Below are positions 3,727 to 30,815 of a stretch of 37,298 bases of DNA, piece by piece. A model generated the notes under the pieces. The model saw nothing but the letters and a program-made list of their open reading frames with translations, had not been told where the DNA came from and searched no databases. Origin of the DNA: Candidatus Aenigmatarchaeota archaeon (lineage in GTDB: Archaea > Aenigmatarchaeota > Aenigmatarchaeia > GW2011-AR5); contig JAPLUZ010000049.1 of NCBI GenBank assembly GCA_026397375.1, positions 1 through 37,298 of the forward strand. Reading direction: 5' to 3'. The stretch's first letter is position 1. The number at the start of each line of letters is the position of its first letter. The translations under genes were made by a program, and so were the position numbers.

Positions 3727-4215
3727 TTACACGGCTGGCGTTATGCCCAGTGTGTTCTGAAATATATTTCTCATCTTGTAGAGAAAGTCTTTGCCCTGCT
3801 CGATGTAGGCACGCCGCTGTTTGGAGTAGAAATATTTGTTGTAGAGAAGCCAGAAGGGCTTCTGGAAGGGATTGGTAAATTCGTATTCTGTCTGTACAAC
3901 GCCCCTTAGCTGTATCCTGCACCAGCCGGTTTTTTCTTTTGATTCCTGTTCGCCCTGAATTATGACTTCTGCGATGGTTTTTGTCCAGAAATCTTCCTTG
4001 CGCTTGCCCATCCACTTGCCGAAGAATTCTCTTGTCTCGCGGGTCGCATCCCATTTTATCTCTGTTTCCAAAACATCCTTGGACGTTACCTGCAGGACCT
4101 GGCGGAGCATTCCAGGCACCATGCTTGCTGCTGCAAAGGGATTTTTGCCCTGAAATCTAACAACAATGGTATCGGCAGGCGCCAGTAGATCATCTACAAC
4201 TGTAAACTTAGACAT
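3727..4215 (-). CDS. Hypothetical protein, tandem paralog B (about 162 aa)
   Basis: ATG at 4215 follows the upstream stop in the arrangement TGA-A-ATG; the track start (GTG at 4224) would overlap that gene by 8 nt. The protein is collinear with the upstream gene: W..[ED]...F...W...K..D, then G...I.....TEY, then a basic aromatic C-terminal helix. Confidence 0.6.
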   Translation of the reverse strand: MSKFTVVDDLLAPADTIVVRFQGKNPFAAASMVPGMLRQVLQVTSKDVLETEIKWDATRETREFFGKWMGKRKEDFWTKTIAEVIIQGEQESKEKTGWCRIQLRGVVQTEYEFTNPFQKPFWLLYNKYFYSKQRRAYIEQGKDFLYKMRNIFQNTLGITPAV

Positions 4216-4216
4216 T

Positions 4217-4732
4217 TCAAGCACCGTCTTTTCTGAGCTTTTCAGCGTACTTTTTTACGGAGGTTTCAAAGCTTACAAGTAACTCCTTGGCATAGTTTAG
4301 GTATTCTAGCCGCTTTCTTGTATAGAAGCGCGTATGCCAGAAGCGGCGGAACATTTCATATATCAGGTTCTGCTGCCAGACTGTGTCCTGGGGGTATTCT
4401 GTAATAAGGCGCGGCCTTATCCTAATATCAGCCTTTCCTTCACCGCCGGCTGAGAAGCCCTTTAGCGTAAGCTCAACAGTTATGTAAGAAAATGTGTCCA
4501 GAATTTTATTAACTTCCCACTCAATCTCAAATTTTTCAGATTCCTTGCCCTTTTCCCAATTATAGGTTTTCTCCTGAACATACGCGTCGGGTACGTTGAA
4601 AACAGCTTTTATCAGGTCCTTTACAGACGCATAAAAATTCTCAGGGTGAGGACCCATGTAGGATATATTTATGTCCTTAACAGGCTCGAATATGTAATCC
4701 CAAATAAGCAACTTGGTTCTTGCGAACGCCAT
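4217..4732 (-). CDS. Hypothetical protein, tandem paralog A (171 aa)
   Basis: GGTG (4742-4739) lies 6 nt upstream of the ATG at 4732. It shares the ordered pattern of the downstream paralog (TYNWEKGKESEKFEIEWEVNK...LKGFSAGGEGKADIRIRPRLITEY...FRRFWHTRFYTRKRLEY). I recognise no known family. Confidence 0.6.
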   Translation of the reverse strand: MAFARTKLLIWDYIFEPVKDINISYMGPHPENFYASVKDLIKAVFNVPDAYVQEKTYNWEKGKESEKFEIEWEVNKILDTFSYITVELTLKGFSAGGEGKADIRIRPRLITEYPQDTVWQQNLIYEMFRRFWHTRFYTRKRLEYLNYAKELLVSFETSVKKYAEKLRKDGA

Positions 4733-4815: not shown

Positions 4816-5373
4816 CTACTCCATCATTTTCAGCAGTGCACCCAGGGCAGACGGCACTTTTGTGATGCCTGCTTCATCTGTGTAGTGGCCTTTCCTGTTT
4901 TCTACAATTGTTTTTGCACCCAACTTCTTAAAAAAATCCACGTTTTCCACCGGCACGTAGGGATCGTTGTCAGAGAATATTGCAACAAATTTCTTGGTTG
5001 TTTTTCTTATCTTTGAGAAATTTATTGGCGTCTCCAGCCACGGCTTTGCTATTTCTTTCTCTTTGTCAGCGTCAAGGGTTAAAGTAAACCAGCCGGCGAC
5101 AAACACAACTCCGCCTGTTTTTTCCTGGGTTTGCAGATAACGCAGTACGGTCTGGCAGCCTATGCTGTGCCCGACAAAATATGTATCTCTGTCGGATTTT
5201 CCAACGAGGTTTGCCAGGAACGGCACCCACGTTTCTATTTTTGGATTATTGGTGTTGGGCATTTTCGGGACGAGAACCTTTATCTTTCTTTTTTTCAGTT
5301 CTTTCTTCAGCCACGGCAGCCAGCCTTCTCCCGGAGATCCGCCCCAGCCGTGTATTATGAATACGCGCTTCAT
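4816..5373 (-). CDS. RBBP9/YdeN-family alpha/beta serine hydrolase
   Basis: N-terminal IIHGWGGSPGEGWLPWLKKEL, nucleophile elbow GHSIG, and a size near 185 aa, all typical of this family. Confidence 0.75.
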   Translation of the reverse strand: MKRVFIIHGWGGSPGEGWLPWLKKELKKRKIKVLVPKMPNTNNPKIETWVPFLANLVGKSDRDTYFVGHSIGCQTVLRYLQTQEKTGGVVFVAGWFTLTLDADKEKEIAKPWLETPINFSKIRKTTKKFVAIFSDNDPYVPVENVDFFKKLGAKTIVENRKGHYTDEAGITKVPSALGALLKMME

Positions 5374-5409
5374 AGCTAATTTTATAAGGTGCAGGATATA
5401 ATAAGAATT

Positions 5410-5748
5410 ATGGTCTTTGATATTCTGCTTGGCGCGGTGCTTCTTGCATTCGGTCTCCTGGTCATATTTTTCTCGACAGAGAGCAAAGAAGAAGGGTCCA
5501 CGTTCTTGCTAATTGTTCTGGTAGGAATAGCAGCCATAGTTGGCGGCGGATGGATTTTAATAACGAAAATAAGCTTCGCAACACTTCTTACAAAATTAGC
5601 CGGCCTTATACTGGCCGCGCTGGGCATATTTTTGGCTGTGGAGTTTCCTGATATAGACCAGTACCAGAGAGAAGGCATGTCAAAAACGGGCATACTCATC
5701 GGCGTTTTCCTGATTATATTCGGCTTCTATTTGCTTATCTTTGCGTAG
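5410..5748 (+). CDS. Small integral membrane protein (3-4 hydrophobic helices)
   Basis: Hydrophobic segments throughout. The ATG at 5410 lies about 25 nt downstream of TTTTATAAGG (leaderless geometry); the track start is the GTG at 5389. Confidence 0.5.
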   Translation: MVFDILLGAVLLAFGLLVIFFSTESKEEGSTFLLIVLVGIAAIVGGGWILITKISFATLLTKLAGLILAALGIFLAVEFPDIDQYQREGMSKTGILIGVFLIIFGFYLLIFA

Positions 5749-5918
5749 TCGTTTCTGACAAATATAACAACACCAAATTCAGCATTATGCGTCGCAACTT
5801 AATTTAGAGAAATCTTAAAATATGGCTCTTGGACAAGAAGAATATAGTAATAGAGAAAAGATCACACGCTTAGATTAGAAAATCTATAAGCGCGGTTTGG
5901 ACATAATTAGGTGTTTTC

Positions 5919-7499
5919 ATGGCTGAAAAGAAAGTAAAAAAATATTTGCTTGAGGATTTTAGCAGGAACCCGGACGGTTCGCTGAAGGACAAGGTACTGG
6001 GTTACTATACGGGCCCTTTTTCGCCGTGGCTGGGTCATGCGCTGATGGCCGGACCTTTTGAAGCCCACGTTAATTTGGACTATACAGGCCCGCCCGGCGT
6101 TTCAACGGGAATTTACTACGGCCTCTGTTTTCAACTGGGCAAATGGGAACATACGGTTATGAAGGCTGACGAATGGATAGAAGTCAGCCCTGTTCACGCG
6201 CAGTACTACCAGCTTACACAAAAACAGAAAGAGGATCTAGAGGCAAAAATAAAATCCGGGCTTGCGTCGTCTGCACAATCTGTCGCTGATTTAGAACTGC
6301 TGTTGCACGATAAAAGAAAATATGAAGAAATGCTGCATTACATGGGCTATCAGAGCAATACGATAGACGCAACAGTGCAGATAGATTTTTCGACAGACGA
6401 CAAGGGAAGGCAGAAGAGGGTTGACAACCATTCGCTGAAGGCAATGTTTATCGACCAGATAGACATGCACACAGGCGAAGGCATATCAATGAGGTCCATC
6501 GTGGGAAGGTGGCCTACGCTCATATCCGACTTCATGAAAATGGATGACAATGACATCGACCCCGACAACGTGAGAAGAAAGCTAGACATTACCCGCGCCG
6601 AAGCTGTCGTTCTTATCACGAAAAACAAACTCTACAAGGAATGGAAAAATATATTTTTGCCAGAGGTGGCAAGCAGATACCAGCGCATAATGGAGCTGGT
6701 GAGAAGCAGGCAGCAGTCTGTTGAACAATATAAAGAATGGCTCAAGCCCTACATAGCCCGTCACAAATTGATAGAAGAAGGATTGTCTTCTTCGGCAACA
6801 AGAAAGCACATGAGAACTTTCTTCATAACAGGCATGGGACACGCTGTATCTTCGGCACAGATAGTTTTGTGGGTCTGGAAGGACTTCATGTCGCCGGAGT
6901 TACAGAAGGCAGGCGGCGAAGAATACGAGCTGCACAAGGTAAGGCCGGACGACGAGTGGACAAGAAAGAATTTGATATTTGACCAGAACCACGGACTTAT
7001 TGTAAAATACCCCTGGATAACCAAGGAGTGGGTTGACGAGCAGGTCGAGGATATCTGGGCAAGAAACTGGCTAACAAGAAAACTGTACTATTCCTTTTTG
7101 ATAATCACATTTATGCGCACGAACATGAAGTCGGCGACTGGCGCGGAGCTCGAGGACGGGCAGTTCGATGTAAATCTTATTTCAATGAGCCGGAATGTTG
7201 TTCTCACAAAGCTGCTGGAACTGAAGGCAAAACAAGAGGAACTGGACATGTACGTGGACACGCTGCTGGGCATACCGCACAAAATAAGCGGCAAGCCGTC
7301 TATATTCAAGCCGGAAAAGGAAAACAAAATAGGGGATCTCTTTGATAAACTTGGGATGAAATTCAACTTCATGAAAAGAGGCCCCTATGAAAGGGAATGG
7401 GATGAGAGGCTGACAAAATACTATTTCGCACCCATAGCAGGCGGAAGGTACGTACCTGTTGTCAATTTCATAAAACAGAGAATGGGGTATGGAAACTAA
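5919..7499 (+). CDS. Large hypothetical protein (526 aa), no recognisable domain or catalytic motif
   Basis: Long uninterrupted ORF. AGGTG (5909-5913) lies 5 nt before the ATG. No P-loop, no Cys clusters and no TM helices. Gly/aromatic-rich N-terminus and helical middle and C-terminal regions. Confidence 0.6.
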   Translation: MAEKKVKKYLLEDFSRNPDGSLKDKVLGYYTGPFSPWLGHALMAGPFEAHVNLDYTGPPGVSTGIYYGLCFQLGKWEHTVMKADEWIEVSPVHAQYYQLTQKQKEDLEAKIKSGLASSAQSVADLELLLHDKRKYEEMLHYMGYQSNTIDATVQIDFSTDDKGRQKRVDNHSLKAMFIDQIDMHTGEGISMRSIVGRWPTLISDFMKMDDNDIDPDNVRRKLDITRAEAVVLITKNKLYKEWKNIFLPEVASRYQRIMELVRSRQQSVEQYKEWLKPYIARHKLIEEGLSSSATRKHMRTFFITGMGHAVSSAQIVLWVWKDFMSPELQKAGGEEYELHKVRPDDEWTRKNLIFDQNHGLIVKYPWITKEWVDEQVEDIWARNWLTRKLYYSFLIITFMRTNMKSATGAELEDGQFDVNLISMSRNVVLTKLLELKAKQEELDMYVDTLLGIPHKISGKPSIFKPEKENKIGDLFDKLGMKFNFMKRGPYEREWDERLTKYYFAPIAGGRYVPVVNFIKQRMGYGN

Positions 7500-7510
7500 G
7501 GTGGAAAAAA

Positions 7511-7594
7511 ATGACCCAGACGTTCAGGATGAGAAAAACTCCAACAATCTGGATCACTGGTGTAGTAAATAAGAGTGATATTAATGCCGTATGA
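7511..7594 (+). CDS. 27-codon micro-ORF (MTQTFRMRKTPTIWITGVVNKSDINAV) bridging the two large genes
   Basis: GGTGG (7500-7504; the wider AAGGTGG stretch overlaps the TAA stop at 7497-7499) lies 6-7 nt before the ATG at 7511. Its TGA (7592-7594) overlaps the ATG at 7584 of the next gene by 11 nt. Found by hand translation; it is too short for the ORF track. Confidence 0.3.
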   Translation: MTQTFRMRKTPTIWITGVVNKSDINAV

Positions 7595-9287
7595 AGTAGG
7601 TGTTTCTTCCGGATTCTGGCAGATCGCAAAGGACCCGGCGCTGCTTGGCATGTCGCAGAAAGCAGGATTCATAGCAACAGCCGGCGTGACATTTAATCAG
7701 ATAGATATGGAAACAGTGGCGGAGTTTCTTGAGCCAAGGGTAAAGGAGAATGTAAAAAGAATACAGAAAGAGCTCGGATTAAAAATAGGCATGCACGCCG
7801 AGATAGGCAGCATGAGTGCATTGGAATCAGGCGAGCGCAGGATCTGGGACGAGGCGCACAAGAGGCTTGTATTGGCTGTCAAAAACGCGACGGAGATGAA
7901 CATAGTTTACATAAATTTTCACACGTCTTCCACAGGATTGCTGCAGTTCAACGAGGCGAGGATAAGGCCGTTCGGCTTCCAGTATCAAGTAGTGGCCCCG
8001 AACGGCAGGCCGTTCTACGAGTTTGCCGACAAGTCCGAGGGGGCAATAGAATACATAAAACAAATAATAACAGGTGGCCATATGAGGGACATGATAGCGC
8101 GCGAACCCCACTTCCGTGAAAAACTCAAGGCACTGGCTAAAAGATATGATGACCTTCTGAAGAAACGAATCGATGAGGCAATCAGAAAATTAGAGTCGTC
8201 CCCGGATTATAAATCGCTTCCACCGGAACAGCGGCGGCAGGTGAAGGAAAATGCGTCGATGCAGGTGTCAAGGGATGTAAATCAGGAGTTTGAGCAGGAA
8301 GAGAGGAAACTGGCGGGAAATGCAGACGAGCTTTATGATTCCTGGAAGCATTCTGATTTTGGACAGTATGTTATGGAGGCCGGCGAGATAGATGCATACA
8401 TGACCGTTGCGTCGGACATGCACAAGAACGGAGACATGCTCTGGACAAACATCGTCGGAAGCAAGAGCGCCGGAAAGGCTTATATCGAAGAAGAGCACGC
8501 GTTCAACGCGGCTGTCGCTTCTGCGTACATAATAGGGCATCTGACCGTAAAGAATAACAAGTACAACAGAGATATTTTAGACGGGATGAGCGTGCTGGAA
8601 TTTGTAAGCAAAAAGGGACTTATTCTCTGCTTTGAATTGCCTGAAGTGGAAAGAAGGGAAGACCAGGGAGAAGGACTGTACAGATTGTTTCATCCAAAGC
8701 ATACGCAGTGGTTTGTGAGAAAACTGAACTCGCCTTTCGTGAGGTTATGCATAGATTTCGAGCATATGCTGGCGCAGAACCTGGACCCATCCAAGGTACT
8801 GCCGGAACTGCCAAATGATTTTGGAAAATTAGTTTATTTGTTTCATCTGGGCGAACCGAAGCCCTACTGGGGCATGGCGCACATACCCATCCCACTTGGA
8901 AGTCATGCCCAGGAGATAATTTACGAATGGTTGTACATAATGAGGCAAAAAGGTTTCAAAAACGGCGTTCTTATTTTTGAAAGAGGCGGCGGACGGGCTG
9001 GCGGCCGCACAACCTTTGAAGTCTTTGAATTGTCTGTGCTGGCGCTAAAGAACATGGCCAAGTATCTTGAGCAGAACATAAAGCCGGATGAACTGCCATT
9101 AGACTTTTATGGCATATCGGAAAAGAATGAAGCCGTGTACGCCCGCGAGTTGGTGACGGTAAAGGAGCACGCGTGGGACCCACTGGAGGGCGTTCTGAGC
9201 ATACCGGAAGAAAAGCACACTTTCCTTAGCGGAGCAGCTATCGCAAAAAACAAGGGCCAGGAATGGGAGAAGAGAAAGTTCAGGTAA
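7584..9287 (+). CDS. Endonuclease IV / xylose isomerase-like TIM-barrel protein with a large helical insertion
   Basis: The ordered motifs MHAEIG, YINFH, LCFELPE, LCIDFEHM, LFHLGE, HIPIPLGSH and LIFERGG parallel the Endo IV series (LNFHPGS, IEN, CIDTCH, HLND, HxxLGxG, ILET) as I remember it. About 235 residues separate INFH from CFELPE. ATG at 7584; the track start is the GTG at 7575. Confidence 0.55.
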   Translation: MPYEVGVSSGFWQIAKDPALLGMSQKAGFIATAGVTFNQIDMETVAEFLEPRVKENVKRIQKELGLKIGMHAEIGSMSALESGERRIWDEAHKRLVLAVKNATEMNIVYINFHTSSTGLLQFNEARIRPFGFQYQVVAPNGRPFYEFADKSEGAIEYIKQIITGGHMRDMIAREPHFREKLKALAKRYDDLLKKRIDEAIRKLESSPDYKSLPPEQRRQVKENASMQVSRDVNQEFEQEERKLAGNADELYDSWKHSDFGQYVMEAGEIDAYMTVASDMHKNGDMLWTNIVGSKSAGKAYIEEEHAFNAAVASAYIIGHLTVKNNKYNRDILDGMSVLEFVSKKGLILCFELPEVERREDQGEGLYRLFHPKHTQWFVRKLNSPFVRLCIDFEHMLAQNLDPSKVLPELPNDFGKLVYLFHLGEPKPYWGMAHIPIPLGSHAQEIIYEWLYIMRQKGFKNGVLIFERGGGRAGGRTTFEVFELSVLALKNMAKYLEQNIKPDELPLDFYGISEKNEAVYARELVTVKEHAWDPLEGVLSIPEEKHTFLSGAAIAKNKGQEWEKRKFR

Positions 9288-9342
9288 GCTTTCTCCTTAG
9301 CCCAACAGAAAGCTTAATCAAAGATGACGCTTCGCTGTTCCT

Positions 9343-9549
9343 TCAGGTAAATTTATGCCTGGGATTTCTTGGGATTATAATCCACGCAAGAATGTAGAAT
9401 AAGATACCTATTCCATAGAACAGGACCAGCAATATCAGAATCAATCGGATTACAGTGGGGTCGACGTTCAGGTATTCTCCGACACCCCCGCATACACCAC
9501 CAAGGATATGATTTTTTCCTGACCTGTAGAGCACCTTTACTTTTTTCAT
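9343..9549 (-). CDS. PspC-domain membrane protein
   Basis: ILGGVCGGVGEYLNVDPTVIRLILILLVLFYGIGILFYILAWIIIP is the classic PspC domain pattern. Confidence 0.75.
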   Translation of the reverse strand: MKKVKVLYRSGKNHILGGVCGGVGEYLNVDPTVIRLILILLVLFYGIGILFYILAWIIIPRNPRHKFT

Positions 9550-9693: not shown

Positions 9694-10881
9694 ATGATAG
9701 TTATGCCTAAAAAAATAAAGAAAACAGCAAAAAAAGAAGTGCAAACGGACAAGCACAAGCACGATAAGCAATTAGAGGCAATAAGAAAGAGAAAAATAAA
9801 GCTGGCTGAGAAATTCAAGGACGAAGTTCTTAAGAAATATAAAAGTATGATCAAGGCCGTTGTTTTGTTTGGTTCTTTGACAAGGCAGGATTACCACGAA
9901 AAAAGCGACGTGGACATGTTAGTAATAATAGATGATGTTGTTACAAGGTTTACACCGGAAATGAAGGATGCATTTGATGACAAATTACACGAGATTGCTA
10001 AGTCAATCTCGGAAGATATTACAGTACAGCCGGCGTGGACGCTGTCGGAGTTCTGGGACATGGCGCGAATCGGACATCCGCTTCTTTACACGATCGTGCG
10101 CGACGGCTGGGCGCTTTATGATACTGGCTTCTTTATTCCTATCCGCAAGCTGCTGGAACTGGGCAAAATTCCCACCACTTTAGAAGCTGTGGAAAAATTC
10201 ATGGAGACTGCGCCACAAAAAATAAACAGAGTAGAGACAGCAAAATTGTACATGGTTGCTGAGGATCTTTATTACGCAATGCTGAACAGCTCGCAGGCTG
10301 TGCTGATGTACATGGGCTACAATCCGCCTTCACCAAAGCACACGCCCGTGGATGTGAAAGAATACCTAGTAGACGCGAAGCTGCTGGAACAAGAGTATTT
10401 AGATGATCTTAATTACATCATTGATTTCAGAAAACAGGTGGAGCACAAGGAAATAAAGGACATAACCGGCCAGCATTTGGACGAATTGATAGGCAAGTCA
10501 AAAAAATTCGTGTCACGCATGGAGCAACTGCTCATGCAGCTGCAAAAGAAGAAGAAGGAAACAATAGTAGAAAAGAATTATGAAGTAATGATAAAGGCGG
10601 CTGTATCGGCATTAAAGAAAATGGAAAAGCTGCCGCCTGATCCAAAGGACCTGCCAGGCGCGATAAAGTCCTATCTTATTGATACAAAGATGGTCGATTC
10701 CTATTTTGACGACATATTCAAGAAGGTAATAACCATGAGAAAGATGCTTGACGAAGACAAGATAAACGAGATACCTCAAAAGGACATAGAATTAACAAGA
10801 GAGTACGTGCGCCGCTTCGTTGAGGACCTGAGGCCTGTCATAGAGAAGCCCATAAAGAAGACAAGTTCTAAGAAGAAATAA
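9694..10881 (+). CDS. Nucleotidyltransferase (MNT) fused to a HEPN-like domain plus an extra C-terminal helical region
   Basis: Pol-beta-type NTase motif VVLFGSLTRQDYHEKSDVDMLVIIDD. A downstream helical domain has an Rx4H motif (DFRKQVEHKE). An alternative ATG is at 9703. Confidence 0.55.
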   Translation: MIVMPKKIKKTAKKEVQTDKHKHDKQLEAIRKRKIKLAEKFKDEVLKKYKSMIKAVVLFGSLTRQDYHEKSDVDMLVIIDDVVTRFTPEMKDAFDDKLHEIAKSISEDITVQPAWTLSEFWDMARIGHPLLYTIVRDGWALYDTGFFIPIRKLLELGKIPTTLEAVEKFMETAPQKINRVETAKLYMVAEDLYYAMLNSSQAVLMYMGYNPPSPKHTPVDVKEYLVDAKLLEQEYLDDLNYIIDFRKQVEHKEIKDITGQHLDELIGKSKKFVSRMEQLLMQLQKKKKETIVEKNYEVMIKAAVSALKKMEKLPPDPKDLPGAIKSYLIDTKMVDSYFDDIFKKVITMRKMLDEDKINEIPQKDIELTREYVRRFVEDLRPVIEKPIKKTSSKKK

Positions 10882-15012: not shown

Positions 15013-15663
15013 TTATTTTCTTTCTTCTGTTTGCTTTTCCAGAAGTTCCCATAATTCGTCCAAGACAGATTTTGGTATATTCACATTTGTAATTTTTTTA
15101 AGATCCTCTAAAAAACAGCCTAATTCAAATATGGCTTTTGGTTTTCCGAGTTTAGTCTGGTTCTTAGCCTCTTCAATTATCAACGTCCAATCGATTTTCA
15201 TACTATCTATTATTTTTCTCACATCGTCTTTGTCTTTGACCCTTTCAGTCGCACATTTCATAAGAATAATATCGTGTAAATCCGCGATTTTTAATATCAA
15301 GTTTTCATCATACTGATATATCTGAACAGCTCTCTCTCGCATCTTTTCAGAAAATATGAAATCTATAACATTGACCACAAACAAATCAAATCTACTTTCA
15401 CCTAAAGTAAGCATTTCAGGAGAATCTCTTTTAACGCCGTATACGACGATAGGATCAATCGGCTGATACCCAATCGATTTAATAGCGTCTTTGAACACTT
15501 CTCTATCCTCATTGGTTTCAAAAACAAGATCTATATCAAGCGTAGTATCTTTAATGCCCAGAAATGTCATAGCGGTACCGCCTACTGCATATACTGTCAT
15601 CTTTTTTTTCAATTTTCTCGATACGTTAATGAACAATTTTTGCTGTTCTTCTAGTGTTATCAT
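15013..15663 (-). CDS. Minimal nucleotidyltransferase, AbiEii/DUF6036-like putative toxin
   Basis: VYAVGGTAMTFLGIKDTTLDIDLVF fits the GGTA...T.DiD NTase motif of AbiEii-type proteins. Its start overlaps the upstream wHTH gene by 4 nt (ATGA). Confidence 0.5.
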   Translation of the reverse strand: MITLEEQQKLFINVSRKLKKKMTVYAVGGTAMTFLGIKDTTLDIDLVFETNEDREVFKDAIKSIGYQPIDPIVVYGVKRDSPEMLTLGESRFDLFVVNVIDFIFSEKMRERAVQIYQYDENLILKIADLHDIILMKCATERVKDKDDVRKIIDSMKIDWTLIIEEAKNQTKLGKPKAIFELGCFLEDLKKITNVNIPKSVLDELWELLEKQTEERK

Positions 15664-16280
15664 CTGTAATCCTCCAGATCTTTTTGGTTAAATGGTAAGT
15701 AGACTTTCCATACCGTTTCGATATCGTTGAAGTCTTTAGATTTTAAATCCGGTACAATATAAACAAAATTATATTGTTCTTTTGGAAGAGCAGCAGTTCT
15801 GAATTTTTTTGTCATTCTTCTTGTTCTCATGATTTTTCTTGCTAAATCATACAAGGCCCCGACTTGTCTTTCGATACGATTTTCTTTGCTTAATCTATAC
15901 AATTCGCTCCAATTATTGATCTTTTTGAATAAAGCCAATGCGGCAAGAATTGTTCTGAGACTTCCTGTCTTGATAGCATAAATTAACGTTTCTTCCAAAG
16001 TTGGTTCTTTCCCGTAAATTTTGTATGTTTGCGCGGTTGATATTTTTACAGGAGAATATGTATTAATTATCTCACGATAATCAAAACCTTCTAATTTATT
16101 TTCGAAAGAAATATAATACACTCTTGTATTATTGTTCAATCTTTTCGTTTTGACATATCCCCGTTTTCTTAGTCGATATATATAGTAAATCGCCTTTCCC
16201 TTGCTTATACCAAGTGTATCCATCACAGTATTGATTGTATGGATTCCTTCAAGCCTTTTCAGCAGATTTTTAGTTTCCAT
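15660..16280 (-). CDS. Winged-helix regulator, AbiEi-like putative antitoxin
   Basis: The N-terminal TVMDTLGISKGKAIYYIYRLRKRGYVK looks like a wHTH. The ATG at 16280 sits about 25 nt downstream of a TATA box; the track start at 16298 is a TTG inside the repeat. Confidence 0.45.
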   Translation of the reverse strand: METKNLLKRLEGIHTINTVMDTLGISKGKAIYYIYRLRKRGYVKTKRLNNNTRVYYISFENKLEGFDYREIINTYSPVKISTAQTYKIYGKEPTLEETLIYAIKTGSLRTILAALALFKKINNWSELYRLSKENRIERQVGALYDLARKIMRTRRMTKKFRTAALPKEQYNFVYIVPDLKSKDFNDIETVWKVYLPFNQKDLEDYR

Positions 16281-16362
16281 AGTTAAATGTAGCCTCAATG
16301 ATATATAAAGATTACTGTAGTATCATGATTTAGAGTTAAATGTAGCCTCAATGATATATAAA
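16281..16362. repeat. Two perfect 29-nt direct repeats (16281-16309 and 16334-16362) with a 24-nt spacer; duplicated promoter/operator
   Basis: AGTTAAATGTAGCCTCAATGATATATAAA occurs twice. On the minus strand each copy begins with TTTATATA. Copy 1 abuts the ATG at 16280. Confidence 0.85.
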
Positions 16363-22081: not shown

Positions 22082-23581
22082 ATGCACGATACAGATAAAA
22101 TAGAGGAAATGGAAAAGTCGATAACGACGATAGCCGAATACGTCAAGTCCCAGATAGGCGAAATGAAGCGCAGCTTCGTGGGGAGAGATGAAGTTGAATC
22201 GCTAAAAGAAAAAGTGCATGGCAACGACTCAGAAGGTTTAATGAACAGGATACAGGACCTGGAAGATGAGATAAGAGATCTGAAAAGGATGAAGCCTGTC
22301 GAACAGGACGTAAATGAGCTGAAGAAGGAGATGCAAAGGGATATTTCTGACCTGAAATTTGAATACGACAAAAAAATGATGAGACACGACAAGGATCTTG
22401 AAGAACTAAACAATACCAGCAAAATCCTCGAGCCGGTAAACCGGCAGATCCGGGATCTGGAACAGGGGATAAAGGACCTGCGCGGCAGGCCAATGCCTTC
22501 GTTTTCTGAGATGAAGGATCTGCAGAAAAGGACAGAAAGCCTGGAAGGCATAATCAGGACTAATGACGTGCCCCATGAAAATGAAAAGTTGAATCAAATA
22601 GAAAATGAGCTGAGACTCATAAAGAAAATGGGCGACACCAAGCCGATAATACTTGCTTCTTTCAAGCAGGAAATGGAAAAGGAACTTATAAGATTAAGGC
22701 AGGACTTTGACGCAAGACTAAAGACGTATGAAGACAGAACGACTGGCGACATTACTTCTGACGACAAAAGACTGGAACAGGACATAGAAGACCTTCGTAA
22801 GAGAATACAGAATATTCAGAATAATGACGGCGTTGAAAAGCAACTGAGGGAACTGCGCATAAAGGTGCGCGGTCTGGAACAGATGCCCCACATTGTGCAT
22901 GATGGCGAAGACCTGAAAAGGTCTCTGGATGAGGAGCAGATAAACCGGATGTCGCTGGAAAAGCATGTGCAGGATTTAAGGAAAGAAATGGACGACATAA
23001 AAAGCACGCCAAGCACGGTTAATAATCCTAAAATAAGGCAGGAATTAGACGCACTAAAGAAAACGGTAAATGAGATGCGCTTTGCAGCTGGCAAGAAAAG
23101 CAGCGGCGCAAATGAAGAAGTTATAGACGACATTAATGATTTGAAGCACGCGATGGACGAGGAAATAGCAAACAGGATGTCCATAGACAAGCATTTACAG
23201 GATTTGCAGCAGCAGGTAAGGGAAGCGAAAAAGCCGACAGAGACAAACATAGATTATTCTAAAATTATTAAGCAGATGCAAGAAGACAAGCCGTTTTCTG
23301 ATGAGGTTGACAAAAAATCACGCCTGGAGACCATGAAACTCATAACAAAACAATTGGAGGAATATACAAGGATGCTGGAGAAAAGAATGCCAAACTTGGC
23401 TACGAGAGACGACCTGGTAAAAATGGAAAGAAAGATTGACCAAAGGCTCAGGCTGCCGATAAGGATGGAAGAGGAAACAATAGGCAGGCGCATGGATGAC
23501 CTCGAAGTGAGTATGAACACGCTTATTTCAGTCCTCAGGTCGCTGCAGAACTCAAACAAAAATCCGTTTGTGATAGAGTAA
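22082..23581 (+). CDS. Long coiled-coil protein (499 aa) with an internal duplication
   Basis: AGGTG overlaps the upstream TAG stop, and the ATG is at 22082. Recurrent xDLExxIxDL[KR] motifs. Residues 277-307 and 353-383 are 16/31 identical. Confidence 0.6.
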   Translation: MHDTDKIEEMEKSITTIAEYVKSQIGEMKRSFVGRDEVESLKEKVHGNDSEGLMNRIQDLEDEIRDLKRMKPVEQDVNELKKEMQRDISDLKFEYDKKMMRHDKDLEELNNTSKILEPVNRQIRDLEQGIKDLRGRPMPSFSEMKDLQKRTESLEGIIRTNDVPHENEKLNQIENELRLIKKMGDTKPIILASFKQEMEKELIRLRQDFDARLKTYEDRTTGDITSDDKRLEQDIEDLRKRIQNIQNNDGVEKQLRELRIKVRGLEQMPHIVHDGEDLKRSLDEEQINRMSLEKHVQDLRKEMDDIKSTPSTVNNPKIRQELDALKKTVNEMRFAAGKKSSGANEEVIDDINDLKHAMDEEIANRMSIDKHLQDLQQQVREAKKPTETNIDYSKIIKQMQEDKPFSDEVDKKSRLETMKLITKQLEEYTRMLEKRMPNLATRDDLVKMERKIDQRLRLPIRMEEETIGRRMDDLEVSMNTLISVLRSLQNSNKNPFVIE

Positions 23582-30688: not shown

Positions 30689-30815
30689 TGGGCTTGGCAG
30701 GATTTGAACCTGCGTCACGGACTATTTCTGGAACCTTCCCTTTTTTCCTTTTGATTGAACTTTTGGGAAAAGTTCACCCGAAGCCCGGATTCTAACCAAA
30801 CTAAACCACAAGCCC
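30689..30815 (-). tRNA. tRNA-Pro (anticodon CGG) with an intron of about 53 nt after position 37
   Basis: Folded by hand. Acceptor stem GGGCTTG/CAAGCCC, D stem GTTT/GAAT, anticodon stem CGGGC/GTCCG, loop TTCGGG|intron|A, T arm GCAGG-TTCAAAT-CCTGC, discriminator A. CCA is not encoded. Confidence 0.7.

Follow-up and report, generated by a model that had tools for sequence, protein, structure and literature searches.

A conserved gene pair of Aenigmarchaeota

The contig JAPLUZ010000049.1 of a Candidatus Aenigmatarchaeota archaeon (GenBank assembly GCA_026397375.1; lineage GW2011-AR5), which was analyzed at positions 1 to 37,298 (in nucleotides, nt; this stretch is hereinafter called the window), encodes two adjacent long genes on the plus strand that we denote A and B. 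Gene A (5919..7499) encodes a basic protein of 526 amino acids (aa), and gene B (7584..9287), when translated from its ATG codon, encodes a 567-aa protein that is predicted to be a metalloenzyme with a xylose isomerase-like TIM barrel. Both open reading frames (ORFs) are far beyond chance given that they have full-length homologs with 26–72% identity (at least 389 for A and at least 106 for B among the matches listed). The reading frame of B gives 570 aa if it starts at GTG 7575, 75 nt downstream of A, and 567 aa if it starts at ATG 7584, 84 nt downstream of A. The alignments of the homologs begin at "MxYKVGISSG", which identifies ATG 7584 as the start; GTG 7575 was dropped on account of the N-termini of the homologs and the 567-aa protein in the databases. 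The ATG codon is preceded by a Shine-Dalgarno-like element, GAGTGAT. An earlier note on this DNA, made from the sequence alone, had described the two genes at these positions, both alternative gaps, and seven motifs of the B product (MHAEIG, INFH, CFELPE, CIDFEH, FHLGE, HIPIPLGSH, and LIFERGG), all of which are indeed present in the translation.

The start of A is preceded by a Shine-Dalgarno-like GGTG (5908–5911) and, ~30 nt upstream, by a TATA-like element (5885..5889, plus strand), which we consider a candidate promoter of A. The A-rich spacer of 84 nt between the two genes (7500..7583, plus strand) contains no run of five or more T and no TATA-like element, and neither its length nor its sequence is kept among the relatives. 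A perfect 9-bp hairpin (9286..9315, plus strand; arms AAGCTTTCT and AGAAAGCTT, with a 12-nt loop) overlaps the stop codon of B; the A-B transcript may end here, and the hairpin is a candidate 3'-end or stability element common to B and a convergent PspC-domain gene (see below). The base composition of the pair is not atypical (GC content 0.46–0.47 vs. 0.33–0.47 across the window), and neither protein has a signal peptide or a transmembrane segment.

The gap also contains a 27-codon ORF (7489..7572, plus strand), which the earlier note had taken for a bridge that joins the two genes in a three-ORF coupled module. Only the coupling of A and B withstood the comparison with relatives. No counterpart of this ORF, or of a second 27-codon ORF at 7511–7594, was found in the A-B gap of any relative, and the gaps of similar length in three of them (L001, L011, and L027) contain no ORF. 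The micro-ORF was rejected as a third component and classified as a chance ORF given this lack of conservation and the fact that the gap does not exceed 15 nt in 32 of 66 loci, with an overlap of the two genes in 16. Thus, the pair is a two-gene unit rather than a three-ORF module.

The synteny scan used one genome per GTDB species and yielded 80 loci, nearly all from Aenigmatarchaeota metagenome-assembled genomes. Among 88 non-redundant loci with A, 80 include enough sequence for adjacency to be judged. B lies directly downstream of A on the same strand in 74 of these judgeable loci according to hidden Markov model (HMM) searches, and a 75th such locus, in Nanohaloarchaeota QJJ-9, was recognized through hhalign (probability 97.9%, E = 6e-13). 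The median gap is 18 nt. This order holds when the identity of the B proteins drops to 26–28% and when A is represented by variants of ~400 aa. Adjacency is lost in two loci that have been rearranged and in a subclade whose A gene is located beside an RNA polymerase subunit gene. The neighborhood survey proposed in the earlier note accordingly finds A and B syntenic and coupled across the phylum.

In three relatives, the A-B spacer has acquired other genes, namely a MazE/MazF-like pair (L053 11624–12221), a PIN-domain gene (L036 11176–11544), or a pentapeptide-repeat gene (L002 9256–9930), so that the spacer evidently tolerates insertions of 1 kb or more. We considered these inserted genes as an additional subunit and rejected this possibility; they are best viewed as opportunistic. 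In another locus (L007 11654–11857), the spacer measures 204 nt and includes an inverted repeat that is long and nested (CTCTGTAGAAA...ATGCAAGAGCATCGACGT / ACGTCGATGCTCTT...TTTCTACAGAG); this repeat might correspond to a structured RNA or to an inserted element.

The pairwise divergence of A tracks that of DNA ligase (r = 0.85) and ribosomal protein S3Ae (r = 0.88). The mirror-tree correlation between A and B is 0.85, with a partial correlation of 0.51 once the ligase/S3Ae signal is removed; these values come from 15 taxa with pairs that are not independent and are only supportive. A-B is a vertically inherited, translationally coupled operon that belongs to the core genome of Aenigmarchaeota and reaches Nanohaloarchaeota; the pair occurs in nearly all Aenigmarchaeota, which are tiny DPANN archaea. 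Because the genomes of DPANN archaea are tiny, any gene retained throughout a phylum is likely to be an important one.

The two proteins and the putative active site of B

The AlphaFold2 model of B (mean predicted local distance difference test score, pLDDT, 89.7, from an alignment of 99 sequences) consists of eight barrel strands, an all-helical block (residues 124–345), and a low-confidence tail after residue ~500. The Pfam family PF01261 is matched marginally (31.2 bits vs. the 31.1 cut-off, residues 342–469 only) and more strongly by divergent members of the B family (55.6 and 67.5 bits). A Foldseek search of PDB with the B model gave 73 matches at E ≤ 1e-3 with a probability of 1.00. The template-modeling (TM) scores are 0.62–0.72 when normalized to the targets, which are ~290 residues long, and about 0.38 on the query, the pattern expected for a barrel with a large insertion. 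Judging by this model, B is a member of the xylose isomerase-like TIM barrel superfamily (PF01261/clan CL0036).

The first part of B (residues 1–123; 7584..7952, plus strand) is predicted to form barrel strands 1–4, by model numbering, and includes the invariant residues G6, G10, K26, G34, E47, H71 (in MHAEIG), and H113 (in INFH). The INFH strand is followed by an all-helical insertion of ~220 aa (residues 124–345; 7953..8618, plus strand). Its part at residues ~150–250 is a predicted coiled-coil arm that is poorly conserved (column identity 0.20–0.27), and its part at residues ~250–345 is well conserved and contains invariant W287 and H319. As a result of the insertion, ~235 residues separate INFH from CFELPE in B vs. 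36 residues between the equivalent H109 and E145 in Escherichia coli Nfo. The second half of the barrel (residues 346–500; 8619..9083, plus strand) is followed by a C-terminal tail (residues 501–567; 9084..9284, plus strand) that has a pLDDT of 46–63 but is among the best conserved parts of the protein (0.73–0.78), ending in W..[KR]..[FY]R even in distant homologs. Given this combination of low pLDDT and high conservation, we infer that the tail serves to bind a partner or a substrate and becomes folded in doing so.

Members of the B family span 499–825 aa. A 617-aa homolog (L093 9263–11116) has an N-terminal glutaredoxin-like domain; the hint at a redox function was dropped given that this domain lacks the CxxC cysteines. 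The 825-aa homolog comes from Nanohaloarchaeota (L092 9534–12011), and its N-terminal ~480 residues are not similar to anything detectable.

Eight residues of B, H71, H113, E351, D391, E393, H421, H433, and E466, are invariant in all 99 sequences, as are R467 and G468, and H394 is histidine in 72 of the 99 and glutamine in the other 27. The Glu-Asp-His-Glu tetrad E351, D391, H421, and E466 maps to the ends of predicted strands. A natural reference for these positions is endonuclease IV (Endo IV; Nfo/Apn1), a trinuclear-zinc apurinic/apyrimidinic (AP) endonuclease and 3'-diesterase of the PF01261 family. The full-length hhalign alignment of B with Nfo covers the NFH strand only and stops at the insertion. 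When the insertion columns of the B family are deleted and the sequences are globally aligned, B residues match eight of the nine metal ligands of Nfo (H69, H109, E145, D179, H182, H216, H231, and E261). H394 is the equivalent of H182, and the other seven aligned positions are invariant in B. The two proteins also share near-identical local motifs (NFH, CID..H, HL, and the glutamate on the last strand), with E values of 0.037–0.086 in the hhalign comparisons to the E. coli protein. B thus appears to represent a new, catalytically intact subfamily between the nuclease-like and the sugar-like branches of the superfamily, and it cannot be filed under the Endo IV family.

The A protein is confidently modeled as well (pLDDT 88). 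The model consists of long beta-hairpins, sheets, and very long helices (residues 94–141, 226–284, 425–450, and 494–522, up to 59 residues each). The A family is basic (median isoelectric point, pI, 8.7), with many aromatic and charged residues that are invariant. Nothing above noise was found for A in Pfam or NCBIfam, and sequence searches of PDB, with A as a single sequence and as a profile, gave no match; ten distant relatives of A compared to Pfam one by one likewise gave noise only. Whole-chain Foldseek searches with A retrieved nothing credible from PDB (best E = 0.077, TM < 0.1) or from BFVD (best E = 4.7e-3, TM about 0.1). When 1.84 billion representative proteins were searched exhaustively with the profile, only 240 relatives were identified. 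A is an orphan family without detectable relatives among known sequence families or folds.

The view of B in the earlier note, an Endo IV/xylose isomerase-like TIM barrel with an insertion that sets INFH and CFELPE ~235 residues apart, is thus borne out by the Pfam match, the model, and the structural comparison, as is its inability to place the 526-aa protein; the conservation of the putative metal ligands, which it left to be examined, turns out to be complete at eight positions. With A outside any known family, B modeled as a TIM barrel, and the two genes syntenic, its proposal of an unusual pairing stands.

The wider conserved block and the rest of the window

The conserved module is larger than the earlier note had recognized. 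The typical gene order is S2 (minus strand), S1 (minus), a small membrane protein (plus), A (plus), B (plus), and NT (plus), followed by the genes for S3Ae and DNA ligase at a variable distance. S1 (4217..4732, minus strand; 171 aa) is basic, divergently oriented relative to A, and 32–78% identical across the phylum; S2 (3727..4224, minus strand; 165 aa) is a distant paralog of S1, the start of which overlaps the S1 stop by 8 nt. Database searches with S1 gave 789 matches; among the matches listed, those named by organism are almost all from Aenigmarchaeota, and none has an informative annotation, with one evident mis-annotation. The S1/S2 family is basic, with a median of 0 cysteines; it has no relatives in Pfam, no match in PDB, and no relationship to A or B according to hhalign. 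The small membrane protein (5389..5748, plus strand) contains four hydrophobic segments and in most relatives is encoded just upstream of A, with which, and with B, its gene may be co-transcribed.

NT (9694..10881, plus strand; 395 aa) combines a nucleotidyltransferase of the MNT/KNTase type with helical HEPN-like domains in one chain; its GS...DxD signature is invariant, and the HEPN motif Rx4H is present in 51 of 65 sequences. Families of the MNT-HEPN type are better known from toxin-antitoxin and defense systems, and the conservation of NT is unusually strong for such a family: within the main clade of Aenigmarchaeota, it is 70–88% identical and is better conserved than S3Ae. NT always follows B, Nanohaloarchaeota included, and the most divergent loci retain A-B-NT but lack S1/S2 and the membrane protein. 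Like A and S1/S2, NT is basic. The gene next to NT in two deep lineages is trm1, and nurA is found nearby in two loci. An Aenigmarchaeota-specific module of protein families without any functional prediction has been published (PMC8204110), and the A-B unit may belong to this dark-matter module.

One divergent Aenigmarchaeote (L004 14441–17326) has two copies of NT (286 and 400 aa), after which comes the gene for a PF01261 protein of canonical size (268 aa); this makes a second adjacency of a nucleotidyltransferase with a TIM barrel. The PF01261 paralog matches ten epimerase and isomerase models of NCBIfam, its matches to the sugar-phosphate epimerase models and to CbiR being weak.

The window as a whole is a housekeeping region that includes the genes for deoxyhypusine synthase, a YchF-type GTPase, TFB, S3Ae, and DNA ligase. 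Two genes interspersed with the conserved block, one encoding a Ser_hydrolase (PF06821) between S1 and the membrane protein (4816–5373, minus strand) and the other encoding a PspC-domain protein between B and NT (9343–9549, minus strand), are specific to the window, being absent from all related loci compared by tblastn. Elsewhere in the window, a 127-nt tRNA (30689–30815, minus strand; Rfam, 48 bits) that was missed by ARAGORN is probably an intron-containing archaeal tRNA; GC content at 30–32 kb is 0.33–0.34. A gene for a DUF6036 nucleotidyltransferase (216 aa) overlaps an uncharacterized 212-aa ORF in a segment (15013–16298, minus strand; GC content 0.34–0.36) that looks like a toxin-antitoxin-like or accessory island. 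An ORF of 499 aa in a strongly purine-skewed stretch (22082–23581, plus strand), with only a weak match to the intermediate filament (coiled-coil) Pfam family, may encode a long coiled-coil protein.

Possible functions and relation to known systems

We tentatively favor the possibility that A and B are the two translationally coupled subunits of a metalloenzyme that is probably a nucleic-acid phosphoesterase. In line with this possibility, the only PDB chains that the B family profile matches within the barrel are those of Endo IV, although the matches are weak. The three invariant histidines of B at the positions of Endo IV H69, H109, and H231, which come in addition to the E-D-H-E tetrad, suggest that B would employ two or three metal ions rather than the mononuclear site of sugar epimerases. 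The insertion, located on the catalytic face, could supply both a variable coiled-coil arm and a conserved lid that carries W287 and H319. The cell probably makes about as much A as B, and A would most likely attach to B, possibly via the disordered, conserved C-terminal tail of the latter, and act as a scaffold or a substrate-recruiting subunit. B would most likely use its metal ions to hydrolyze a phosphoester or phosphodiester bond in a nucleic acid, such as a DNA lesion or end or an RNA end, and A-B might work together with the adjacent MNT-HEPN nucleotidyltransferase. A nucleic-acid substrate is suggested by the facts that NT is constantly adjacent and that the partner proteins are basic, by the neighboring genes for Trm1, NurA, and ligase, and by the bias of conserved genes in reduced genomes toward information processing.

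A bolder version of this proposal, which we regard as rather improbable, is that A, B, S1/S2, and NT constitute a hitherto unrecognized, essential machine for the repair of nucleic acids or the processing of their ends, confined to the Aenigmarchaeota-Nanohaloarchaeota branch of DPANN, in which an Endo IV-derived multinuclear phosphoesterase, endowed with a lid and an arm and with an obligatory partner of a new fold, possibly replaces an AP endonuclease or an RNA 3'-end healing enzyme.

Several observations weigh against a nucleic-acid phosphoesterase. The Nfo ligand D229 has no counterpart in B, where Thr/Met-Ala precedes H433, and the position of H182 is taken by glutamine in more than a quarter of the sequences (27 of 99). 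The insertion-deleted alignment of B with Nfo is not statistically significant (E = 0.086), and when the family profile is compared to PDB, Endo IV chains are matched only at E = 0.2–0.7. The nfo model of NCBIfam is not matched by B, no Endo IV chain is among the best 50 Foldseek matches of B, and the nearest structures are ketose 3-epimerases, YcjR, and MJ1311. An Endo IV-like ligand pattern is, moreover, no guarantee of AP-endonuclease activity, given the case of the Endo IV-like protein PF1383, which lacks this activity (PMC2770678). The B family is mildly acidic (median pI 6.3), and its arm is not basic. Five loci contain A without an adjacent B, and toxin-antitoxin or other genes can sit between the two, so tight coupling is not universal. 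Finally, gene neighborhood in small DPANN genomes is weak functional evidence.

The serious rival, somewhat unlikely in our assessment, is that B is an isomerase, epimerase, or dehydratase of a sugar, a sugar phosphate, or another small molecule, comparable to ketose 3-epimerases, YcjR, or IolE. Such an enzyme would rely on one or two Mn or Co ions, with the insertion serving as a substrate lid and A as a structural or regulatory partner, in a lineage-specific step of carbohydrate, envelope, or cofactor salvage metabolism. This explanation is in line with the structural comparison, in which the best 50 of the 73 Foldseek matches (E from 5e-8 to 1e-5) are all ketose 3-epimerases, YcjR, or MJ1311, and with the E-D-H-E tetrad and the epimerase-type HxGE motif, which are invariant or common in the B family. 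Several members of the family carry the JGI label "sugar phosphate isomerase/epimerase", and genes linked to sugar nucleotides (NTP_transferase, GlmS) are located some kilobases away in some loci. A divergent B homolog finds its best PDB match by sequence in MJ1311 (E = 5.6e-4), which was deposited as a D-tagatose 3-epimerase-like protein. However, MJ1311 itself has earlier been listed as the predicted Nfo homolog of Methanocaldococcus jannaschii (PMC2770678). Furthermore, at a threshold of E ≤ 1, B matches none of the NCBIfam epimerase and isomerase models (D-psicose 3-epimerase, L-ribulose-5-phosphate 3-epimerase, IolE, Hyi, and others), whereas the canonical-size PF01261 paralog described above matches many of them. 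The three additional histidines at Endo IV ligand positions also argue against a sugar enzyme, and a phylum-wide core operon with NT and basic partners would be unusual for sugar metabolism in reduced DPANN genomes.

We consider it unlikely that A and B belong, together with S1/S2 and the membrane protein, to a larger assembly of a structural or regulatory kind that is specific to the lineage and in which the barrel of B would be mainly a binding module or would act on a protein or lipid substrate. Such an assembly would fit the joint occurrence of five co-conserved, lineage-specific proteins of unknown function, one of them a membrane protein, as well as the very long helices of A, the coiled-coil arm of B, and its highly conserved, disordered tail. 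The strict invariance of eight residues of the metal-site type in 99 sequences, and also in distant homologs, argues instead for catalysis; A and B lack signal peptides and transmembrane segments, and S1/S2 and the membrane protein are missing from the most divergent A-B-NT loci.

Two further explanations are largely refuted. It is highly improbable that B is a MNIO-like (DUF692) multinuclear iron enzyme that, together with A, modifies a precursor peptide encoded by the micro-ORF, in the manner of the MbnB/MbnC/MbnA system of ribosomally synthesized and post-translationally modified peptides: MNIO enzymes have Endo IV-like ligand positions, and a barrel enzyme with an obligatory partner and a 27-codon ORF superficially resembles MbnABC, but the micro-ORF lacks conservation and would not fit into most of the loci, B does not match PF05114, the candidate substrates have no conserved cysteines (S1/S2 included), A is not similar to the known partner proteins, A and B are vertically inherited core-genome genes, and archaea of the Aenigmarchaeota type live mostly in anoxic habitats. 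Just as remote is a module of anti-virus defense or of a mobile element: although a nuclease-like barrel with an uncharacterized partner, the nucleotidyltransferase domain of NT, which is common to candidate defense families (PDC-S09), and the occasional toxin-antitoxin genes between A and B could point in this direction, PADLOC gave no matches for A, B, S1, or the membrane protein, PHROG gave none for A or B, A and B were found on none of 2.9 million viral contigs, the GC content is not atypical, the pair occupies the same chromosomal site, next to S3Ae and DNA ligase, throughout the phylum, and divergence follows that of housekeeping genes (r = 0.85–0.88). The defense role that the earlier note had entertained is at odds with these results and with the housekeeping neighborhood.

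Literature searches found nothing on the A-B family, and nothing specific on an Endo IV or TIM barrel of Aenigmarchaeota or on DPANN xylose isomerase-like proteins. The pairing is undescribed; B is a new variant within a known superfamily, and A is a family without known relatives. Uncharacterized lineage-specific families are common in DPANN; among them, A-B is a concrete, testable unit in which an intact barrel of the Endo IV/xylose isomerase type is tied to an orphan partner and an MNT-HEPN protein. If the substrate is a nucleic acid, the pair would exemplify a repair or processing nuclease of novel architecture that depends on an accessory subunit; if it is a sugar, the pair would represent a conserved step of metabolism in organisms to which hardly any such steps are ascribed. 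Whichever chemistry B has, A is a good target for the discovery of a new fold.

Compared to known systems, the closest structural relatives of B are the ketose 3-epimerases, YcjR, and MJ1311 (E = 5e-8, TM 0.70 on the target), with which it shares the E-D-H-E tetrad. These proteins are ~290 aa long and lack the insertion, the C-terminal tail, and the partner gene, and to our knowledge metal binding in ketose 3-epimerases does not involve the positions of the additional invariant histidines of B. The cobamide-remodeling phosphodiesterase CbiR demonstrates that the PF01261 superfamily includes phosphodiesterases that do not act on DNA; B does not match the CbiR model, and the A-B locus has no cobamide context. 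The MNIO enzymes (DUF692, MbnB type) have a barrel of the same clan with multinuclear ligand positions and act as heterodimers with partners encoded alongside (MbnC, TglI, and others). The A-B pair differs from them in that A far exceeds the known MNIO partners in size and is not related to them, there is no conserved precursor peptide gene next to B, and the locus belongs to the housekeeping core rather than to a biosynthetic cluster. Endo IV belongs to the same TIM-barrel superfamily, and eight of its nine ligand positions align with residues of B, with D229 missing and the H182 position variable. B is twice as long, with the helical insertion of ~220 aa between the equivalents of H109 and E145, and, whereas Endo IV works as a monomer without a partner, B is genetically tied to A.

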